The notes beneath the pieces were generated by a model. It saw only the letters and a list, made by a program, of their open reading frames with translations. It was not told the DNA's origin and ran no database searches. From contig JALAGF010002515.1 of NCBI GenBank assembly GCA_030167865.1, positions 1-32,645 on the forward strand: a stretch of 32,645 nt of DNA, given 5' to 3'. A program made the translations under genes and the position numbers. Source of the DNA: Craspedostauros australis (Eukaryota). Shown piece after piece: positions 2,184 through 21,667 of this stretch. How positions within the stretch are numbered: position 1 is the stretch's first letter; every line of letters begins with the position of its first letter.

Positions 2184-3204
2184 ATGTCCACACCAACGCA
2201 ACCAACAGTAAGTATACGCAACCTGCATCCTTCTCACGTCCAACTCCCACGATCATTCGTGCTGCTTGCCTCGCTGCCTTGACAACACCCATCCCTGCGC
2301 TCGCTTCTGTCCCTATCTCTCCGCGTCTGCACATGGAACTGCGTGTGGAACTGCACATACATATGCACGGGCCACTACCTATCGGTATGGTCTGTTGCAT
2401 GCATAACCACATCCAATGGATGTGCCGCCCCGCCGATATTCGTACGCTTTCGCTACGGAACTGTGCACTTTCGCTGCACCTCGCTTTGCGTCTCTGCTGC
2501 AATGCAAACGCATCCATGATTGCAATTATGTATTCATTCCACTCTACTCTATACCAATGCCATCTCAACGATCGCAGAGAAAGATGGAAGCATTGCACAA
2601 TGCACAGACAAAAGCATACCAAGAGGCAGCAACCAAGGCGATAGATCAATGGATCCGAACAGCGCCGCTTGAGCCAATGGAGGAGAACGACTCCGAACAG
2701 GACTACGTCAACCGATGCCTCAAGGCCCTGGTCGCCAAGGCACCCAAATGGCAGCTCAAGGAACCCAACGCGCTCGACTTGGCAATTCGCAGAAAGGCCA
2801 AGCTCATGTACGCCAAGTACAGTTCCAGCGCTTCCATTGCTGCAGCAGCAAAAGCCACGGCCGCAAGAGGCTCGGTTCCGGCAACGCCCGAAGACGGAGA
2901 GATGGAGGACGTTGCAGATGCGCAACAGAACAACAACAACAACAGAATGACCAGCCAGCCCGCCACACCCAATGAAAGCGCGGCTGAAGACGACGAAGAC
3001 GGAGAAATCGAGGACGATGCCACCAGCAATCCAGGTGATGCCATGAAACGAAAGATCCCGCCTCGACGCAAGGCCGCCCCAACCAAACGCATGCCCAACA
3101 AGATGGTGGCACGCAAGAAGCAGCCAGCCATCAAGGGTGGGCGCGGAGGCCGCGGCGGCATGACGACACGTGCCAAGCGCGGTGGCAGAGGTGGCAAGAA
3201 GTGA
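2184..3204 (+). CDS. Hypothetical protein with acidic middle and basic K/R + RGG C-terminal tail, predicted exons 2184-2207 and 2578-3204
   Basis: Donor GTAAGT at 2208 and acceptor CGCAG at 2577 give in-frame MSTPTQPT/RKMEALHNAQ.... Helical-looking N-terminal part, acidic EDDEDGEIEDD, and tail KGGRGGRGGMTTRAKRGGRGGKK suggest a nuclear or RNA-binding protein. An alternative start is the ATG near 2584. Confidence 0.65.
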
Positions 3205-3420
3205 AACCTCAGTATGGAATGCACCACCTTGTGTTCCATCGCGTCGAACCACATGCAGCAAACGCATGACTCCACTCGCACATCACGCCGTGGTATCGCA
3301 ATCACGAACAGTGCTTGTAGGTGGATGGCTGTATAAGCGTACTCGTGGATGTACCACATATGTCCAGGACCACTATAATTCATGTTAGGAACATTCAAAA
3401 CAGGGAATATAATGCGTGCA

Positions 3421-4524
3421 CTACCAATTATTCAATCCAAAGTCCTTGCCAACTTCCTTCTCGGTCTTCCGCCTGTCCTTGTACTGCTCGAGGGTCTTCT
3501 TGCGCTCCGTGCGGTCGTTGCCTGCCTTCTCGATCTCCGTGGCCTGCGCGAAGAACTCATCGACGACATCCTGCGATTCCTCCGCCGCATCGAGGACCGG
3601 ATCCGTGAAGTAGCGGTTGCCGAGGCCGGCCCGATCCCCTCCAATCTGGATCTTGGGGATCCCGTTGGCCTTGCGCCAGTCGTTGGAATCCCTGAGGGAG
3701 TAGGAGCAGCCGCAGTACTCCTGCTTGTAGAATTTCTGCTCGGCGGAGATCTGATACTTGCGCAGGGTCATCTCGTCGGACTGCCAGTCCCTGGCCCAGT
3801 AGTGCAGGCCTTGGTACCGGGCCGCCGCCCTCGCGCCGGAGTCGTCGACCTGCTTGGCGTCCTTCCATCGGGAGGTCGCGTTGGTGGTGGCGATGGCGTC
3901 GAATCCATGCTCATGCGCGTAAAGCGCCGTCCGCTCCATGCGCATATCGAAACAGTGCGTGCAACGGCGTCCGCGCTCGGCATCGAACTCCATGCCCTTC
4001 ATGCGTTCGTACCAGCGATCGGCATCGTAATCGCAATCGACGAAGCCGATGCCGAGATCTTCGCAGAAACGCTTGTTCTCGTCCTTGCGGATATCGTACT
4101 CGCGTTTGGGATGGATGTTGGGATTGTAGAAGAAGACGACGACCTGGCAATCCTCGAAGGACATCATCTCCTCCACCATGGCGCCGCTGCAGGGCGCGCA
4201 GCAAGAGTGCAGCAGGATGCGGGAGATGCCGGGCGGGGCCTTGGCGGATTTGCGTGGGCCTAACGCCAGTTTCTCTTGCAGACGTTGGCTCGCGGCCACG
4301 GCCCAGGCCGGAGCGTGCGTCGGCAATGCGGCGCCCTCGCTGTATTTGAGTTGGGGGTTGGTCTTGCCATTGTTAGTGTTGGAGTTATTGTTAGAGTTAT
4401 TGTTGGAGTTGGAGTTGGTGTGTCCATGATTGTGTCCATGATCGGCGGCATCTTCTTGGGCTGTCTGCAGATGATGTCCATTGCAGCCACCAACCTCGCT
4501 CAACTTCTCCTCCACGGTAGTCAT
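3421..4524 (-). CDS. queH: Epoxyqueuosine reductase QueH (DUF208) with N- and C-terminal extensions
   Basis: Family motifs are present in order: LLHSCCAPCS, FFYNPNIHPxxEYxxRKDE, ERGRRCTHCFDMRMERTA, SRWK, FYKQEYCGCSYSLRD. Intronless, 367 aa, with an Asn/His-rich N-terminal extension. Confidence 0.93.
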   Translation of the reverse strand: MTTVEEKLSEVGGCNGHHLQTAQEDAADHGHNHGHTNSNSNNNSNNNSNTNNGKTNPQLKYSEGAALPTHAPAWAVAASQRLQEKLALGPRKSAKAPPGISRILLHSCCAPCSGAMVEEMMSFEDCQVVVFFYNPNIHPKREYDIRKDENKRFCEDLGIGFVDCDYDADRWYERMKGMEFDAERGRRCTHCFDMRMERTALYAHEHGFDAIATTNATSRWKDAKQVDDSGARAAARYQGLHYWARDWQSDEMTLRKYQISAEQKFYKQEYCGCSYSLRDSNDWRKANGIPKIQIGGDRAGLGNRYFTDPVLDAAEESQDVVDEFFAQATEIEKAGNDRTERKKTLEQYKDRRKTEKEVGKDFGLNNW

Positions 4525-5663
4525 GGTGCGTTTCCCTCCTTCGCTGTCTGCTTCGGTCTGATCAGCTGCTATCTTCTGTAATGGAATACTCTAGTACGGT
4601 ATAATACCATGTGATAGCATGTAATGGTATGTGATAGCATGAACAAGAATCATCTCTCATTACCTACATTGCTTTCGCTCTTGGTTGCTCTCCCACCATT
4701 CCCTTGGTTCCAGTCATCTCCAATCATTGCGGAGGCAGCCGACGACAGCGAGAAACTGCGCAACTTGTTCTTCTTCACATCCGTCCGTCCGTCCGTCGAT
4801 CTCATGACATCACGCCACATCAATCCCGCCTTTGATCCTCGCGCTGTTCGTGTCTGTTGAGGCATGTGCAAGATATCCGTTCAGCATCTGTTGAGTTTTG
4901 TACAGCCCTCGTGGCTGAGGATGTTATTAACCTTTTGAAGCGCAACATTTTTGGCGCATCGTGACTTCTTCCAAAATTCCGTTGACACCGGAGGCAGTCT
5001 CCGCACTGAACAAAGACCGAGGATGGCGGCAACTCTGTTGTGGCATGGAGGCAAAGAGACAAGGCAGAGAGGGTCCAAATCGGTGGAAGGGAACCAAGAG
5101 TGAAGTGGAAGAGGAGCAAAGGAAGCCACATCCCAGTGCCACGAATGCCTGCCTGGTCTTGCGATATCCCCATACATAGATCCAAAGCGTATGGCACATG
5201 CACTCGCATTGCTCTGCGACTATACCCATCGACGAAAACGAAGTCTGGTTGTTCGTGTGTGATACTCCATCAACCAAGACATCCGAGTGTTACATCCACA
5301 CGTGCATCCCCACGTGTACATTACCATACCCAGGAAGAGAGAGAGAGAGGCTGTAGTCATAGTTCGCACTCCGTCCATTATTTGCGGCATTCGTCAATCA
5401 GTCGTCAATCAGTCGTAAACCAACAAAGCCGTCCTCTCTTGCAACTGCTATACTATCCTACTGGAGATGCCGTAGCACGAGGTAGAGGGACAAAGAGAGA
5501 GAGACTCGATACCGTGAACACGCGCACACAGAGACAGACACAGACACAGAGAGAGAGAAGCAACCAGACACATCACAACTACTCATACACCATCTACACC
5601 ACGCATACTATACCATATCATATCATATTATATCATATAATCCCATTGCTGAACAAAGCATTG

Positions 5664-17671: not shown

Positions 17672-20600
17672 CTACAAAATGCCGTACACCTTTTTCAGTT
17701 TCACCACCAAACGCCAGTCCTCGTTCTCGAGCGCATCCTTGAAGTTCTCCTTCAGCGCATCGATGGAGGCTCTTGTCAGGGTGGAGTATAGGCTGTGCGC
17801 GGCATCGAACTGACGTCCGTACGTGATGTTGGGGTTGCCCTCGTTCACGATCTTGATGGCCACGGAAGATCCCTTCTTGGCGGTATCCTGTTCGCGTCCG
17901 CTGTTCTCGATCGACGTCACCTTGCCGACATGCAGACCACCCAAGGCCGGGACGCACAGCGGCGTGCCAACCTTCAGAATTCCCTCCACGACCTCCACGC
18001 CGACGATGATCGGGTCCTTCTGGTTGAACACGTGCTGTGGGAGGATTTTGATGATGGAAGGGAACACAGCGACGGCCGCGGCCTCCTCACGGCGGCGTTG
18101 CGTCAGGTCATCCATGAACCTTGTGAACTGATCGAACAGGTGGTAAATGATATCGGCAGTCATGATGCGGACGCCCATGTCCGTCGCATGCTCGCGAGCC
18201 TCACGTTCGATATCGACGTCGAAAGCAAGGATGGTGGCGTACTCCGGATGTCCCTTCTCGTTCATGATGGAGATCTTGGTGACATCGCGCTTGTGGACGG
18301 TACCGATGCCGATGGCGCTCACTGGGATTGGCGGTTGTGTTTCCTCGCGCAGGAACTGCAGCAGCGCCTCTAGCGCACCCAGCGTGGAAGCCTGGACGAG
18401 CACACCCTGCTTGTCCGTGCTGAGCTTGTCCTCGAGCTTCGTGAGGTCGGACATGACCTCGGCCTTGATGTCCTCCTCCTCGTCATCCGGCCCGACGACC
18501 ATGACCGGCGTTCCCGCCATGACCTTCTCAAGTCCGTTACCGATGACCTTGACGCCCAGGGCTCCCTTGATCTCCTTGTGGTGGATGTACTCGGACTTGA
18601 CGCGCATCTCACGACTTGGTGGTGGGGTGAGCAGACCACGGATCTCAGCGACGATGGGACCATCGAGGGTGCAAAACACGGCCTTGTCACCTTCCCGCAA
18701 GTACCCGTTGACGACCAAGACATCCACGGTCATTCCTAGACCATCGATGGCCTTCACCTCGAGCACCGTGCACTGCAGGTTGGCGCACCACATGAGCTGC
18801 TTCCAGATCTTGCGCTGTGCTATCTGACAGAGGAGAAGCAGGATGTCCTGCACGCCCTCTCCCGTGACGGCGGAGGTGGGGACGAGGGGGATGAAGTCGG
18901 AGCTCATCCAGTCGTCATCGCCCATCTCCCAGTAGAGGTTTGAGTTGACGCCCTGCTCCTGCAGCTGGACCTTGGCATCGAGGGCGCGGCTGCGGAATTC
19001 TCCGACCGTTCCTTCCTCCTGCTGTTCGAGGGCCTCGCGGATGGGCGCGTCCTTGCAGGTCTTCCAGGCGTAGCATCTGTCGACCTTGTTGAGGGCCACG
19101 ACGAAGGGCACGCCCTTCTTGACGAGCATGTTGAGACTCTCGATGGTCTGCTGTTCGAGTCCGTGCATGAGATCCACCACGAGGATGGCGACGTCACAGA
19201 GCGAGGATCCGCGCGATCGCAGGTTGGTGAAAGACTCGTGGCCTGGCGTATCGATGACGAGCATACCCGGGAGGTTCATGTCGAACTTCTCAACCTCGTT
19301 GAGGCGCTTCGTCTGCGTCTCAAGCGTCTTCTTCTCGAAGTAGGTGGCACCGATCTGCTGCGTGATACCACCAGCCTCGCCCTCCTGCACGTTGGTCTTG
19401 CGGATCTTGTCCAGAAGCTTGGTCTTTCCGGTATCGACGTGACCCATGATGACGACGATGGGGCATCGCAGGTCGTCGCGGGTTCGCGCCTCGAGGTTCG
19501 CCTTTTCTTGCGCCTCGCGCTTCTTCTTGCCCTGTTCCCGCTTCTGGGCGGCCAGCAGCGTCTTCATGCTCTCCGCCTCCTGCTCCAGCGCCAGCTTGGC
19601 ACGGTTCTCGGAGTCGATGCGGTCTTGCTCGGCGCGCTTGCGGCCCAGCTCACGCAGTCGCTCCTGCTCCTTCTTCCTGGCCACTTCTGCCAGGTCCACG
19701 TCGTCATCAACCTTGGCGGCCTCAAGACGCTTGGCAAGATCGCCGAACTTGCCATCGTCATCATCATCGCTGTCGGCATCCCATTCATCATCTGAATCGG
19801 CATCCCATTCGTCGCCGCTTCCCTCATCGTCAGCAGCTGCTTCTGCTGGCTTTTCTTCTGCTTCTTTGGTCTCGACGGCGGCTGGTGCAGCTGCTTCCTC
19901 TTCCTTGTTTGGCTCCTCCGCTGACGCGGACGCCTCCTCCTGTTGTTGTTGTTGCTGATTCTGCTGGAACTTCCCTCTTCCCTTACCTCTGCCTTTACGC
20001 TTGTTGTCGTAGACGACCTTCTGCGGCTTGGCGGCGCCCTCCCCTTCCACGGGCAGCATGCCGGCCTTGCGCATGGCCTCGAGACGCTGCTCCGCCAACC
20101 TCGCCTTGGCCTTCTGCGCCTTGGTCATGTAGGTTCCCTCCCGCTTCTGCCGCTCGATCTTCTCCTTCTGCTTGAGGCGTTTCTTCTCGCGCTCCTCCTC
20201 CTTCTTGCGAGCCTCCTCGGCCTCCTTGCGTTCCAATTCTTCGACGCGCTTGCGCTCTGCCTCTTCGGCGGCGCGGATGCGTTCCTCCTCCTCGCGTTGC
20301 AGTCGCAGGCGTTCCTGGACCATGCGGCCGCGGGCGGAGACCTGTTGTAATGCAGTGCATTTTGTTGTATTGTAGTGCAAGTAGTGGTTGTGTAAGTGAA
20401 GTTGGAATTGGGTTCAAATGAGTTGGAATATTGAGTGTAATATAATATAATACCATTTGGCATGTAGTAATACGAGTGTGCAGATGAATGTGGTCAACAA
20501 GAAGGGGCTGTCAAGAGATGCGAGGATGGGTGCATGTCTCTGAATGTTGCACCCTCTTCGATTGCAGTTGGCATTGGTTTCATCACTGCCATTGGAGTCA

Positions 20601-21164
20601 CCGTCTCTCTGTCCAATGAAAGAGAGAGAGAGAGAGAGATTGTTCCATTAACAGTATTATAATAATACTATTATAGAAGCGAGAAAATAGGAATCGAACA
20701 ACATGACATGACATGATGGCACACATAATATTATATTATACTTCACACGCCATCAACTAAAGCCACAGCCATAACAATACAACAACAATAACAGTAGCAT
20801 CAACAGTAGCATCAACAGTAGCAATGACACGCACCTTCTCATTGGCCTGAGCTCCACCAGCAGCTCCACCACCTCCACCGCCTCCTTTCTTCTTCTTTTT
20901 CTTCTTCTTATTCTTGCCACCACCACCACCGCCTTCGCCTTCGTCTCCTGCAATGCCCTGCGCTGCTAGGAACGCAGCTGCCGCATCGACCGCTCCAGCA
21001 GGAGCCTCTGCAGTCGCGGGTTCCTTGGCAGCATCCTCCTTGGCAGCTGGCGCAGCATCCGTCTTGTTCTTCTGCGACTCAGCGTCCAGCAGAGCCTCCC
21101 AATCATCATCCGCGTCGGCCGCCTGCTTCTTCTGCTGCTGCTTCTTTCCCTTCTTCTTCGGCAT
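17672..21164 (-). CDS. EIF5B: Eukaryotic translation initiation factor 5B, exons 21164-20835 and 20341-17672 (about 999 aa)
   Basis: G-domain motifs MGHVDTGKT, EAGGITQQIGAT, DTPGHESF and NKVD, plus VQASTLGALEALL and ADIIYHLFD. Lys-rich N-terminal exon. Donor AAG|GTGCGT at 20834 and acceptor AACAG at 20342 give a phase-0 join. Confidence 0.96.
20621..20639. repeat. (GA)n microsatellite in the eIF5B intron
   Basis: agagagagagagagagaga. Confidence 0.9.
20790..20823. repeat. 12-bp tandem repeat (AACAGTAGCATC, nearly 3 copies) in the eIF5B intron near the donor
   Basis: Units start at 20790, 20802 and 20814. Confidence 0.85.
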
Positions 21165-21667
21165 CGTGCTGTCTTTCCTTTCTCTTTCTCTTTAACAGGT
21201 GGAGTTGAGTCGGAGTACGAGCTGTGGTACGTATTCTATTGTATTATGCTGTATTATATGTGAAGTTGTGGATGCCAAGTGAGTGTGTTTGAATGATCGT
21301 TTGAATGAGGAAATCGATGTGCGAAAATCCAAGGTTGAATCTGGAGGTGGTTTTACGTGTTTGTCTGTTCATTGGTGCGTTTCGACACCGCATTCATGCG
21401 CGTGTTGATGTCGATGGCCAAGGATTTTCAGACATCATCCACTCATGTTTCTGACGACGTACAGACGTTGATAACACACGTTTGAACCATCACAAGGAAT
21501 GCACGACTGGAACAGGCTCTTCCACGATTCACAGCGTCTGTTCTGATGTGTTTGGGAGGTGCTCTGCTGCACTGTGCTGTGATTCAATGTATTGTGGAGT
21601 ACTCCATCATGATCTGCTAGTATAATATAATATAATAGTACTCTACGACTATGTAGGTGCTGCACTC

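Follow-up and report, generated by a model that had tools for sequence, protein, structure and literature searches.

A 32,645-nucleotide stretch of genomic DNA from the diatom Craspedostauros australis (GenBank assembly GCA_030167865.1, contig JALAGF010002515.1, positions 1 to 32,645 of the forward strand; hereafter the window) carries a genuine, intact and host-integrated gene of bacterial ancestry for QueH, the cobalamin (vitamin B12)-independent epoxyqueuosine reductase. Sequence and predicted structure assign its product to the QueH family as firmly as such evidence can. QueH is a standard diatom gene and not a one-off, and the diatom proteins form one clade with those of haptophytes, dinoflagellates and prasinophytes, nearly all of which are fused to QueA. 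We tentatively propose that the window gene encodes a working, nuclear-encoded and domesticated cytosolic reductase of epoxyqueuosine (oQ), independent of cobalamin, which in diatoms would finish salvaged epoxy-precursors; taken jointly, the catalytic activity, the cytosolic location and the salvage function have slightly less than an even chance of being right.

Queuosine (Q) tunes the decoding of NAU and NAC codons. To our knowledge, the textbook view is that eukaryotes cannot make queuosine and must salvage queuine. The bacterial route is summarized in PMC12301720: tRNA-guanine transglycosylase (TGT) inserts pre-queuosine 1 (preQ1) at G34, QueA forms oQ, and either the B12-dependent QueG or the B12-independent QueH completes Q; eukaryotes insert queuine directly by QTRT1/QTRT2 after it has been freed from Q nucleotides by QNG1. 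The same article, published in 2025, broke the salvage-only rule with a mitochondrial QueG route, dependent on B12, in a small green alga and in some red algae; it reports YhhQ, bacterial-like TGT (BL-TGT), QueA and QueG in Chloropicon, where QueA and QueG are predicted to be mitochondrial, and BL-TGT, QueA and QueG in Galdieria (PMC12301720). The genes described here likewise place bacterial tRNA-queuosine enzymes in algal nuclei and break the salvage-only rule. In Chloropicon and the red algae, however, the reductase is B12-dependent QueG, encoded separately from QueA and predicted to be mitochondrial, whereas here it is QueH, which in most lineages is fused to QueA and in diatoms stands alone, and which carries a cytosolic-type tail; in the diatom protein no presequence was seen by inspection. 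The fusion to QueA in other marine algae suggests that many phytoplankton do more than scavenge finished queuine. The exception now takes in diatoms as well as haptophytes, dinoflagellates and prasinophytes, with another reductase, whose independence of B12 is notable in organisms under chronic cobalamin scarcity.

The gene is one uninterrupted open reading frame (ORF) on the minus strand, which starts with ATG and encodes 367 amino acids. The parts on which the argument rests are the following:

3421..4524, minus strand: complete QueH coding sequence, 367 codons plus stop (3421-3423), single exon (ORF list, Pfam).
3679..4218, minus strand: QueH catalytic core, residues 103-282, with an adenine-nucleotide alpha-hydrolase-like fold (Pfam; predicted local distance difference test score, pLDDT, >92; Z 24.7).
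4189..4203, minus strand: CCAPC motif (C108, C109, C112), from the sequence, invariant in 89 aligned rows.
3952..3963, minus strand: CTHC motif (C188, C191), from the sequence, invariant in the same 89 rows.
3706..3714, minus strand: CGC motif (C271, C273), from the sequence, invariant in the same 89 rows.
3424..3678, minus strand: C-terminal extension of the eukaryotic clade, residues 283-367, common to diatoms and all fusions and missing from the nearest bacterial-type sequences.
3424..3432, minus strand: terminal Asn-Asn-Trp-COOH, a candidate signal for the targeting complex of iron-sulfur cluster assembly in the cytosol (CIA), from its conservation in the clade.

A preliminary description of the window, made from its letters alone, had named a complete QueH domain with its three cysteine clusters, and both parts of this statement were borne out. 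The Pfam family PF02677 (QueH) was matched with 197 bits against a curated cut-off of 23.5 bits (E 3.4e-58) over residues 103-278, which cover profile positions 1-174 of 175; no NCBIfam family matched at E up to 0.01. In sequence, the protein matched the Thermotoga maritima QueH structures 7lc5/9dco at E 1e-20 and 27% identity. An AlphaFold2 model, built on an alignment of 89 rows (52 eukaryotic and 37 bacterial-type sequences), had a mean pLDDT of 82.2 and a predicted template modelling score of 0.79, with pLDDT above 92 in the core. This model fitted 7lc5 in Foldseek (E 6e-11, TM score 0.90 normalised to the target) and in VIA-align, where 175 of 178 residues (model residues 102-282) were superposed at Z 24.7 and a root-mean-square deviation of 1.3 Å; the next-best structural family in VIA-align, at Z 11, consisted of QueC, MnmA, LarE and other PP-loop folds.

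All seven cysteines of the three motifs are invariant in 89 of 89 rows, as are nine further residues (N136, I137, R146, E183, R187, R195, K221, Q268 and G272). In the structure paper on T. maritima QueH, the CC.PC, C..C and CGC cysteines are reportedly described as ligands of the metal centres. In the alignment with the T. maritima chain, C108 falls on C9 and C112 on D13, two positions for which the PDB has mutant structures (titles 'C9S mutant' and 'D13N mutant'). The diatom protein shares with T. maritima QueH (7lc5/7lc7/9deu) the full-length domain, the fold and the cysteine motifs, and presumably the same B12-independent conversion of oQ to Q, but it has CCAPC in place of CCAPD, is 27% identical and is encoded in a eukaryotic nucleus.

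The distribution of the family was assessed by a similarity search of 5.8 billion clustered proteins, which returned 5972 matches, the best 120 of which were examined. All 120 carry PF02677 and, apart from a protein identical to the window QueH that is already present in this public collection (P0001), are 56-80% identical to it. They include at least 93 full-length diatom-type clusters (at 90% identity) of the same architecture, and every named owner among them is a diatom: Skeletonema menzelii, Seminavis robusta, Thalassiosira profunda, Chaetoceros debilis, Chaetoceros tenuissimus, Stephanodiscus triporus and a Bacillariaceae metagenome-assembled genome, seven taxa to which four transcripts of the Marine Microbial Eukaryote Transcriptome Sequencing Project (MMETSP) are added. 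Identities among 12 aligned homologues, centric and pennate diatoms among them, ranged from 63 to 80%. The NCBI and UniRef databases automatically label the proteins of Seminavis, Chaetoceros and Stephanodiscus 'Epoxyqueuosine reductase QueH', and therefore the bare presence of the gene is already on public record. The preliminary description had allowed that the literature might treat this as a standard algal gene; it is standard in diatom catalogues and labelled in databases, but no published description of a eukaryotic or diatom QueH was found, although supplements (the trees of PMC12301720, the tables of PMC2376095) may name diatoms. Neither the family and its chemistry nor the occurrence of the gene in diatom catalogues is thus new, and a bacterial-type algal Q pathway with QueG was published in 2025. 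As far as our searches reach, a eukaryotic QueH clade over four major phytoplankton groups, the QueA-QueH fusion, the conserved extension ending in Trp and diatoms lacking QueA are not in print.

A quick IQ-TREE analysis (99 rows, 182 columns, LG+C20+F+G4 by posterior mean site frequency, support by the Shimodaira-Hasegawa-like approximate likelihood ratio test, SH-aLRT, only) was run with 22 hand-picked rows of the 93 of diatom type, 26 of the 57 rows of other eukaryotes after removal of near-duplicates, and all 51 bacterial-type rows. The 48 eukaryotic rows fell on one side of a single branch (SH-aLRT 96), within which the diatoms formed one group (SH-aLRT 89) and the other 25 rows, nearly all of them fusions, another (SH-aLRT 90). 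The window QueH grouped with that of Seminavis (SH-aLRT 96), and the diatom branches were short. The earlier suggestion of a horizontally acquired QueH therefore holds for the bacterial ancestry and not for an acquisition specific to diatoms, which share one clade with haptophytes, dinoflagellates and prasinophytes.

One sequence, P0126, was left unplaced at the base of the eukaryotic clade in this tree. P0126 and P0302 are stand-alone proteins of 335 aa, encoded on contigs of up to 92 kb, which are only 50-51% identical to the window QueH, contain the AGLG.R insert of diatom type and terminate in NNW; they may represent a second QueA-less lineage outside the diatoms.

Outside diatoms, nearly all eukaryotic members are tied to QueA. 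Exhaustive scanning of 1.84 billion representatives with HMMER yielded 4082 matches, of which 180 had E values of 1e-30 or lower, and Pfam was run on 31 of the 150 listed representatives, picked for length. In 10 of these 31 long proteins a QueA domain (PF02547) lies N-terminal to PF02677; they are 53-64% identical to the query and their alignments run into the C-terminal extension. Five of nine further cluster members proved to be PF02547+PF02677 fusions, and long matches of lower identity (38-45%) were fused to unrelated partners. The owners of the fusions include Polarella glacialis, Pycnococcus provasolii (824 aa), Pseudoscourfieldia marina, Cymbomonas tetramitiformis (734 aa) and the haptophyte Diacronema lutheri (887 aa), and the QueA profile search described below named Prymnesium parvum and Emiliania huxleyi. 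In the dinoflagellate P. glacialis, QueA-QueH is preceded by FolD and pterin-carbinolamine-dehydratase domains. Non-diatom members that seem to stand alone, such as P0123, open with the C-terminal motif of QueA and are truncated fusion models. The diatom protein belongs to the same clade as the fusions (SH-aLRT 96), is 46-52% identical to ten of them that were aligned and has the same C-terminal extension with a terminal N-W, but it lacks the whole QueA half, and its tail contains a short AGLG.R insert and its N-terminus a conserved extension of its own. No description in print of the QueA-QueH fusions was found within the reach of our searches, and databases call them 'hypothetical' or 'epoxyqueuosine reductase'.

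The fusions bear on function, because the fused QueA makes oQ-tRNA, the substrate of QueH, which is direct evidence that the QueH of this clade works in queuosine synthesis. The idea that the gene could mark a partial Q pathway is strengthened accordingly by the fusion of the family to QueA in haptophytes, dinoflagellates and prasinophytes. In these three groups the bifunctional enzyme would make oQ and then reduce it at tRNA position 34 to Q by the [4Fe-4S]-dependent chemistry of QueH, which would imply that preQ1-tRNA is made as well.

Two side observations concern these fusions. Folate and pterin enzymes recur as partners: dinoflagellate-type proteins combine FolD, pterin-4a-carbinolamine dehydratase and QueA, with or without QueH (the P0122 cluster), and there are also bacterial-type QueH with 5-formyl-tetrahydrofolate cyclo-ligase (three cases), QueH with HPPK, and HPPK with QueA (rows P0122, P0490, P0493, P0495, P0520, P0207, P0171, P0226, P0217 and P0575). 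Such partners could be a hint of the physiological reductant of QueH or of the supply of a GTP- or pterin-derived precursor. In addition, QueA is preceded by an Arg-rich N-terminal extension of 20-80 residues in about half of the aligned complete fusions (P0329, P0292, P0306, P0476 and P0483), and others start at the domain (P0473, P0319, P0486 and P0129). The Arg-rich N-termini could be mitochondrial presequences, as predicted for QueA and QueG of Chloropicon; together with the C-terminal Trp tail, a presequence would be a contradictory signal for the site of Fe-S loading.

The nearest bacterial-type QueH proteins are about 226 aa long and 50-58% identical (76 metagenome loci; counterparts P0137, P0140, P0147 and P0150). 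One of the 76 loci has an adjacent queA, and the flanks of the other 75 hold no QueA. In this bacterial metagenome locus (L008:3-1328, plus strand), a queA ORF that is open at its 5' end and ends at 641 is followed after a gap of 6 nt by queH (648-1328, 226 aa). Bacteria thus do have a queA-queH operon, the obvious forerunner of a fused gene. The QueH of L008 is 58% identical to the diatom protein over residues 97-295 and has queA upstream in the same orientation, but it has no tail, and its QueA is of the short form, whereas the eukaryotic QueA halves are closest to long-form QueA and score nearest to that of named Bacteroidota. Among prokaryotic relatives with a name, the scan of genome contigs yielded a single locus (Fusobacterium, 34% identity); Pseudomonadota QueH clusters at 0.92 in the ESM Atlas serve as a lead only. 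Compared with bacterial QueH, the diatom protein adds an N-terminal extension of 100 residues and a C-terminal one of 85 residues ending in N-W-COOH, neither of which was seen in the bacterial-type sequences examined.

The search for QueA in diatoms gave a different picture from that in the other groups. By tblastn with four fusions, no QueA was detected in the window of 32.6 kb, and no diatom name appeared among the 120 best matches to the QueA half of one fusion or among the 120 best matches to a profile of 11 eukaryote-type QueA sequences, searches in which owner names are shown for cluster representatives only. The profile search placed 38 clusters above the first named Bacteroidota QueA (421 bits), namely 19 QueH fusions, three fusions with FolD/pterin-carbinolamine dehydratase and 16 stand-alone proteins. 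Twenty QueA clusters were opened and contained no diatom, the only further name being Emiliania huxleyi. The diatom alignment retrieved 80 metagenome loci, of which three carry a stand-alone eukaryote-type QueH (L003-L005), with no QueA on their short contigs, and one (L006) a fusion. At least 93 diatom-type QueH clusters thus face 16 stand-alone eukaryote-type QueA clusters of any owner, which is a strong imbalance. QueA and QueH co-occur in the clade through fusions, and these indirect searches gave no QueA for diatoms, in the window or under a diatom name. From these searches QueA would seem to be absent from diatoms, with a probability clearly above even. If it is truly absent, the substrate of QueH must come from outside; with no QueA detected, the oQ reduced by the diatom enzyme is most likely made elsewhere.

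According to this proposal, diatoms would have kept the reductase half only, under strong constraint, and their QueH would reduce salvaged epoxyqueuine or oQ nucleoside or nucleotide released by bacteria, possibly by B12-starved bacteria with a stalled QueG. The precursor might be reduced in its free form, or be inserted by the eukaryotic transglycosylase and reduced thereafter. That QueH might act on a free nucleoside or nucleotide is conceivable, because T. maritima QueH was crystallised with GMP and with free queuosine (PDB titles). The salvage route gains plausibility from the missing QueA and stays unproven. If it is true, oQ-type compounds would be a new currency between algae and bacteria, and an 'epoxyqueuine' micronutrient exchange would link B12-limited marine bacteria and phytoplankton. 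If, more widely, three other major phytoplankton groups run a cytosolic bifunctional QueA-QueH, the salvage-only rule would no longer hold for much of marine primary production. Testable points are the natural bifunctional QueA-QueH enzyme, the orphan diatom QueH in need of an outside substrate, and a textbook-style bacterial Fe-S enzyme that would have been domesticated by the gain of a CIA-recruitment tail; they are relevant to work on queuosine, on Fe-S protein maturation and on the micronutrient exchange of algae with bacteria.

Both ends of the protein bear on its location in the cell. Two features lie ahead of the catalytic core:

4225..4356, minus strand: N-terminal extension conserved in diatoms, residues 57-100 (L.YSEGA.LP..AP.WAVAAS.R...), from the alignment, with a helix at residues 73-87 in the model.
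4357..4440, minus strand: low-complexity insert rich in His, Asn and Ser, residues ~29-56, missing from 12 homologues, with pLDDT <50.

The helix at residues 73-87 is modelled at pLDDT 84-89, and the 12 aligned homologues begin 2-10 residues ahead of the conserved block. By inspection, the N-termini of diatom QueH contain no hydrophobic signal peptide and no basic presequence, in agreement with the earlier statement that no obvious signal peptide is present. Targeting to plastids or mitochondria was rejected from this inspection of the N-termini only. A His/Asn/Ser-rich run, HGHNHGHTNSNSNNNSNNNSNTNN, is specific to the window and was inserted ahead of the conserved extension. The preliminary description had spoken of low-complexity extensions, which is true of residues ~29-56 only; the rest of the N-terminal extension and the whole C-terminal extension are conserved sequence. 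MAFFT sets the start of the N-terminal extension under RFLSYGDA, the C-terminal motif of QueA in the fusions, but the similarity is too weak to claim a vestige of QueA. Pfam finds no family in either extension.

The C-terminal extension has the diatom consensus.WR...G.P.I.IGG..AGLG.RYF.DP..DA.EES.DVVDEFF...ERKK.L..YK.RRK...GLNNW and, in all members of the clade, fused or not, the form.WR...G.P.I.IGG....Y.DP..D..EES.EVV..FF.......Y..RRK....NNW; the AGLG.R insert of 5-6 residues is specific to diatoms. In the alignment, the nearest bacterial-type sequences end soon after the G.P.I.IG stretch, and a search of the ESM Atlas with the extension alone gave no usable match. The model has helices at residues 309-314, 318-333 and 338-357 (pLDDT 74-84). 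Its last block has a pLDDT of 56, and the last residues are therefore probably flexible. Among 205 sequences that span the full domain, the 153 of the eukaryotic clade (those with at least 266 bits) end in NW in 149 cases (NNW 109, ENW 35, DNW 4, SNW 1), the models of the four other rows being truncated or variant. Of the 51 bacterial-type rows, none has a terminal W and one has a terminal F. The residues ahead of N-W vary in sequence and number, while N-W-COOH is fixed. In the window protein, W367 is the last residue and bears the free carboxylate.

A C-terminal tripeptide of this kind is known from clients of the CIA machinery. The motif [LIM]-[DES]-[WF]-COO- is reported to be necessary and sufficient for recruitment to the CIA targeting complex and to occur on cytosolic enzymes such as Leu1, with bacterial, mitochondrial and plastidial orthologues described as lacking it; the report counts no organellar Fe-S protein ending in W or F among 164, and client tails of ~3-45 residues (PMC10245660). 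According to a later preprint, the Trp side chain and the free carboxylate dominate binding, Trp binds 16-fold better than Phe, position -1 is dispensable and position -2 only modulates Trp-ended signals, the natural signal of Leu1 being Q-D-W (bioRxiv 10.64898/2026.04.06.716496). Like such clients, eukaryotic QueH is an Fe-S enzyme with an invariant Trp on a variable linker, which its bacterial orthologues lack; it differs in having N at -1 and N, E or D at -2 in place of [DES] and [LIM], and in an extension longer than those described. N-N-W is thus off the consensus at both positions, yet it has the determinants that matter. The tail may be an adaptation for maturing a bacterial [4Fe-4S] enzyme in the eukaryotic cytosol, probably in dependence on CIA, and the gain of these ~85 residues would have adapted the clade to eukaryotic cells. 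Independently of the N-termini, the invariant C-terminal Trp argues for a cytosolic location.

Several points weigh against a cytosolic QueH that serves salvage in diatoms. A QueA of other bacterial origin scoring below ~395 bits would fall outside the best 120 matches, and the absence of QueA refers to the window and the best-120 protein lists and not to whole diatom genomes. No published evidence was found for a eukaryotic transglycosylase that accepts epoxyqueuine, nor for oQ or its base in seawater. Among public sequencing runs there is no RNA run with the locus, the sole matching run being of unrecorded kind. The Arg-rich, presequence-like N-termini of several fusions sit badly with a purely cytosolic clade. 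Finally, positions -1 (N) and -2 (N/E/D/S) depart from the published [LIM]-[DES]-[WF] consensus, and the extension is ordered and 85 residues long compared with ~3-45 residues for CIA tails. The full scenario, in which QueA-less diatoms use a cytosolic, CIA-matured QueH on bacterial precursors and three other groups a cytosolic QueA-QueH, is possible but on balance doubtful.

Diatoms might instead possess an undetected QueA, divergent or of other bacterial origin, and a transglycosylase that inserts preQ1, in which case QueH would end an internal route from preQ1 through oQ to Q, similar to that of Chloropicon and the red algae but with the B12-independent QueH substituted for QueG. We consider this rather unlikely. 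It would accord with the other members of the clade, nearly all of which are physically tied to QueA, with the BL-TGT, QueA and QueG known in Chloropicon and Galdieria (PMC12301720), and with a bacterial-like, chlamydial-type TGT that PMC2376095 reports in 'chromalveolates', red algae and prasinophytes in a text that does not name diatoms. A QueA scoring below the Bacteroidota block would be invisible to our searches, and of the 16 stand-alone eukaryote-type QueA clusters that do exist, 12 were opened and gave Emiliania huxleyi as the only name. Against an internal route, however, the seven diatom taxa named in the QueH list are missing from both QueA lists (best 120 each), at least 93 diatom-type QueH clusters stand opposite those 16, and neither the window nor the short contigs L003-L005 contain QueA.

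The tail can also be read as part of the enzyme itself, as a module for binding tRNA or docking an electron donor or as a lid on the active site, with no CIA signal in the terminal Trp. Its mostly ordered helices (pLDDT 74-84), its length of 85 aa against the ~3-45 residues of CIA tails, the departure from the consensus at -1 and -2 and the organelle-targeted appearance of some fusions would all suit such a module. An enzyme part would leave unexplained, on the other hand, that the residues ahead of N-W are free to vary in sequence and length and N-W-COOH is not, that the last residues are of low confidence in the model, and that the tail is present in eukaryotic and missing in bacterial Fe-S orthologues, which is the published hallmark of the signal. 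A purely enzymatic tail therefore seems unlikely, if far from negligible.

It is improbable that diatom QueH has changed its job and acts on another epoxide or related substrate, or in a non-catalytic role, outside queuosine metabolism. An orphan enzyme without its upstream partner, with a diatom-specific helix in the N-terminal extension and an AGLG.R insert of 5-6 residues in the tail, might be taken as a sign of such a change, but the residues invariant in bacterial-type and fusion QueH are all kept in diatoms, the identity to aligned non-diatom eukaryotic members (mostly fusions) is 46-60%, the diatom branches are short, and the core of the model lies on T. maritima QueH at 1.3 Å.

Bacterial contamination or a chimeric assembly, with the QueH ORF outside the diatom genome, would suit a single-exon gene from a family of bacterial ancestry but was rejected as very unlikely indeed, given eukaryotic genes on both sides on one contig, matching codon usage, a public contig of 1096 nt that crosses the junction at 100% identity, the eukaryote-specific tail, and closest relatives that are proteins of named diatom genomes and transcriptomes (56-80% identity), some of them on contigs of up to 3.6 Mb.

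The genes on the same contig include an eIF5B-type IF2 (17672-20380; GTP_EFTU, IF-2 and GTP_EFTU_D4 domains), a Snf7/ESCRT-III protein, a PAP-fibrillin and a Methyltransf_16 lysine methyltransferase. The G+C content at third codon positions is 0.79 in QueH and 0.61-0.79 in ten neighbouring ORFs, so that its description as host-like was correct. Relative synonymous codon usage of QueH correlated with that of the pooled neighbours at r = 0.86, within the neighbours' own range of 0.72-0.92. The one matching public run covers positions 2493-3894 and 4327-4612 with contigs that are 100% identical and show no joints, one of them being the 1096-nt contig, which links the 3' half of QueH with the convergent neighbour (2416-3204, plus strand); these contigs show continuity and not transcription, and the uncovered parts carry no meaning. 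Continuity with a flanking gene, which had been named as a check, is thereby established. The gene had also been called intronless, in line with the single ORF and with public contigs that run over 3421-3894 and 4327-4612 without differences or joints.

The further statement that QueH lies among genes with spliceosomal introns found weak backing. One candidate phase-0 GT..AG intron of 493 nt was recognised in the sequence of the eIF5B gene (17672-21191) at 20342-20834 on the minus strand, with the borders GAG AAG|GTGCGT ... ACAG|GTC, but the remaining neighbours read as single ORFs and the fibrillin gene is complete in one. A search for domains split by introns gave no Pfam matches in 55 of the 111 stop-to-stop ORFs of at least 110 aa in the window. 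With the candidate intron removed, a Lys-rich first exon (MPKKKGKKQQQKK...) would be linked to the main ORF of eIF5B. The convergent neighbour of QueH (2416-3204, plus strand) encodes a protein of 262 aa that matches no Pfam family, is acidic in the middle and has a basic C-terminus rich in RGG; the stop codon of this gene lies 216 nt from that of QueH.

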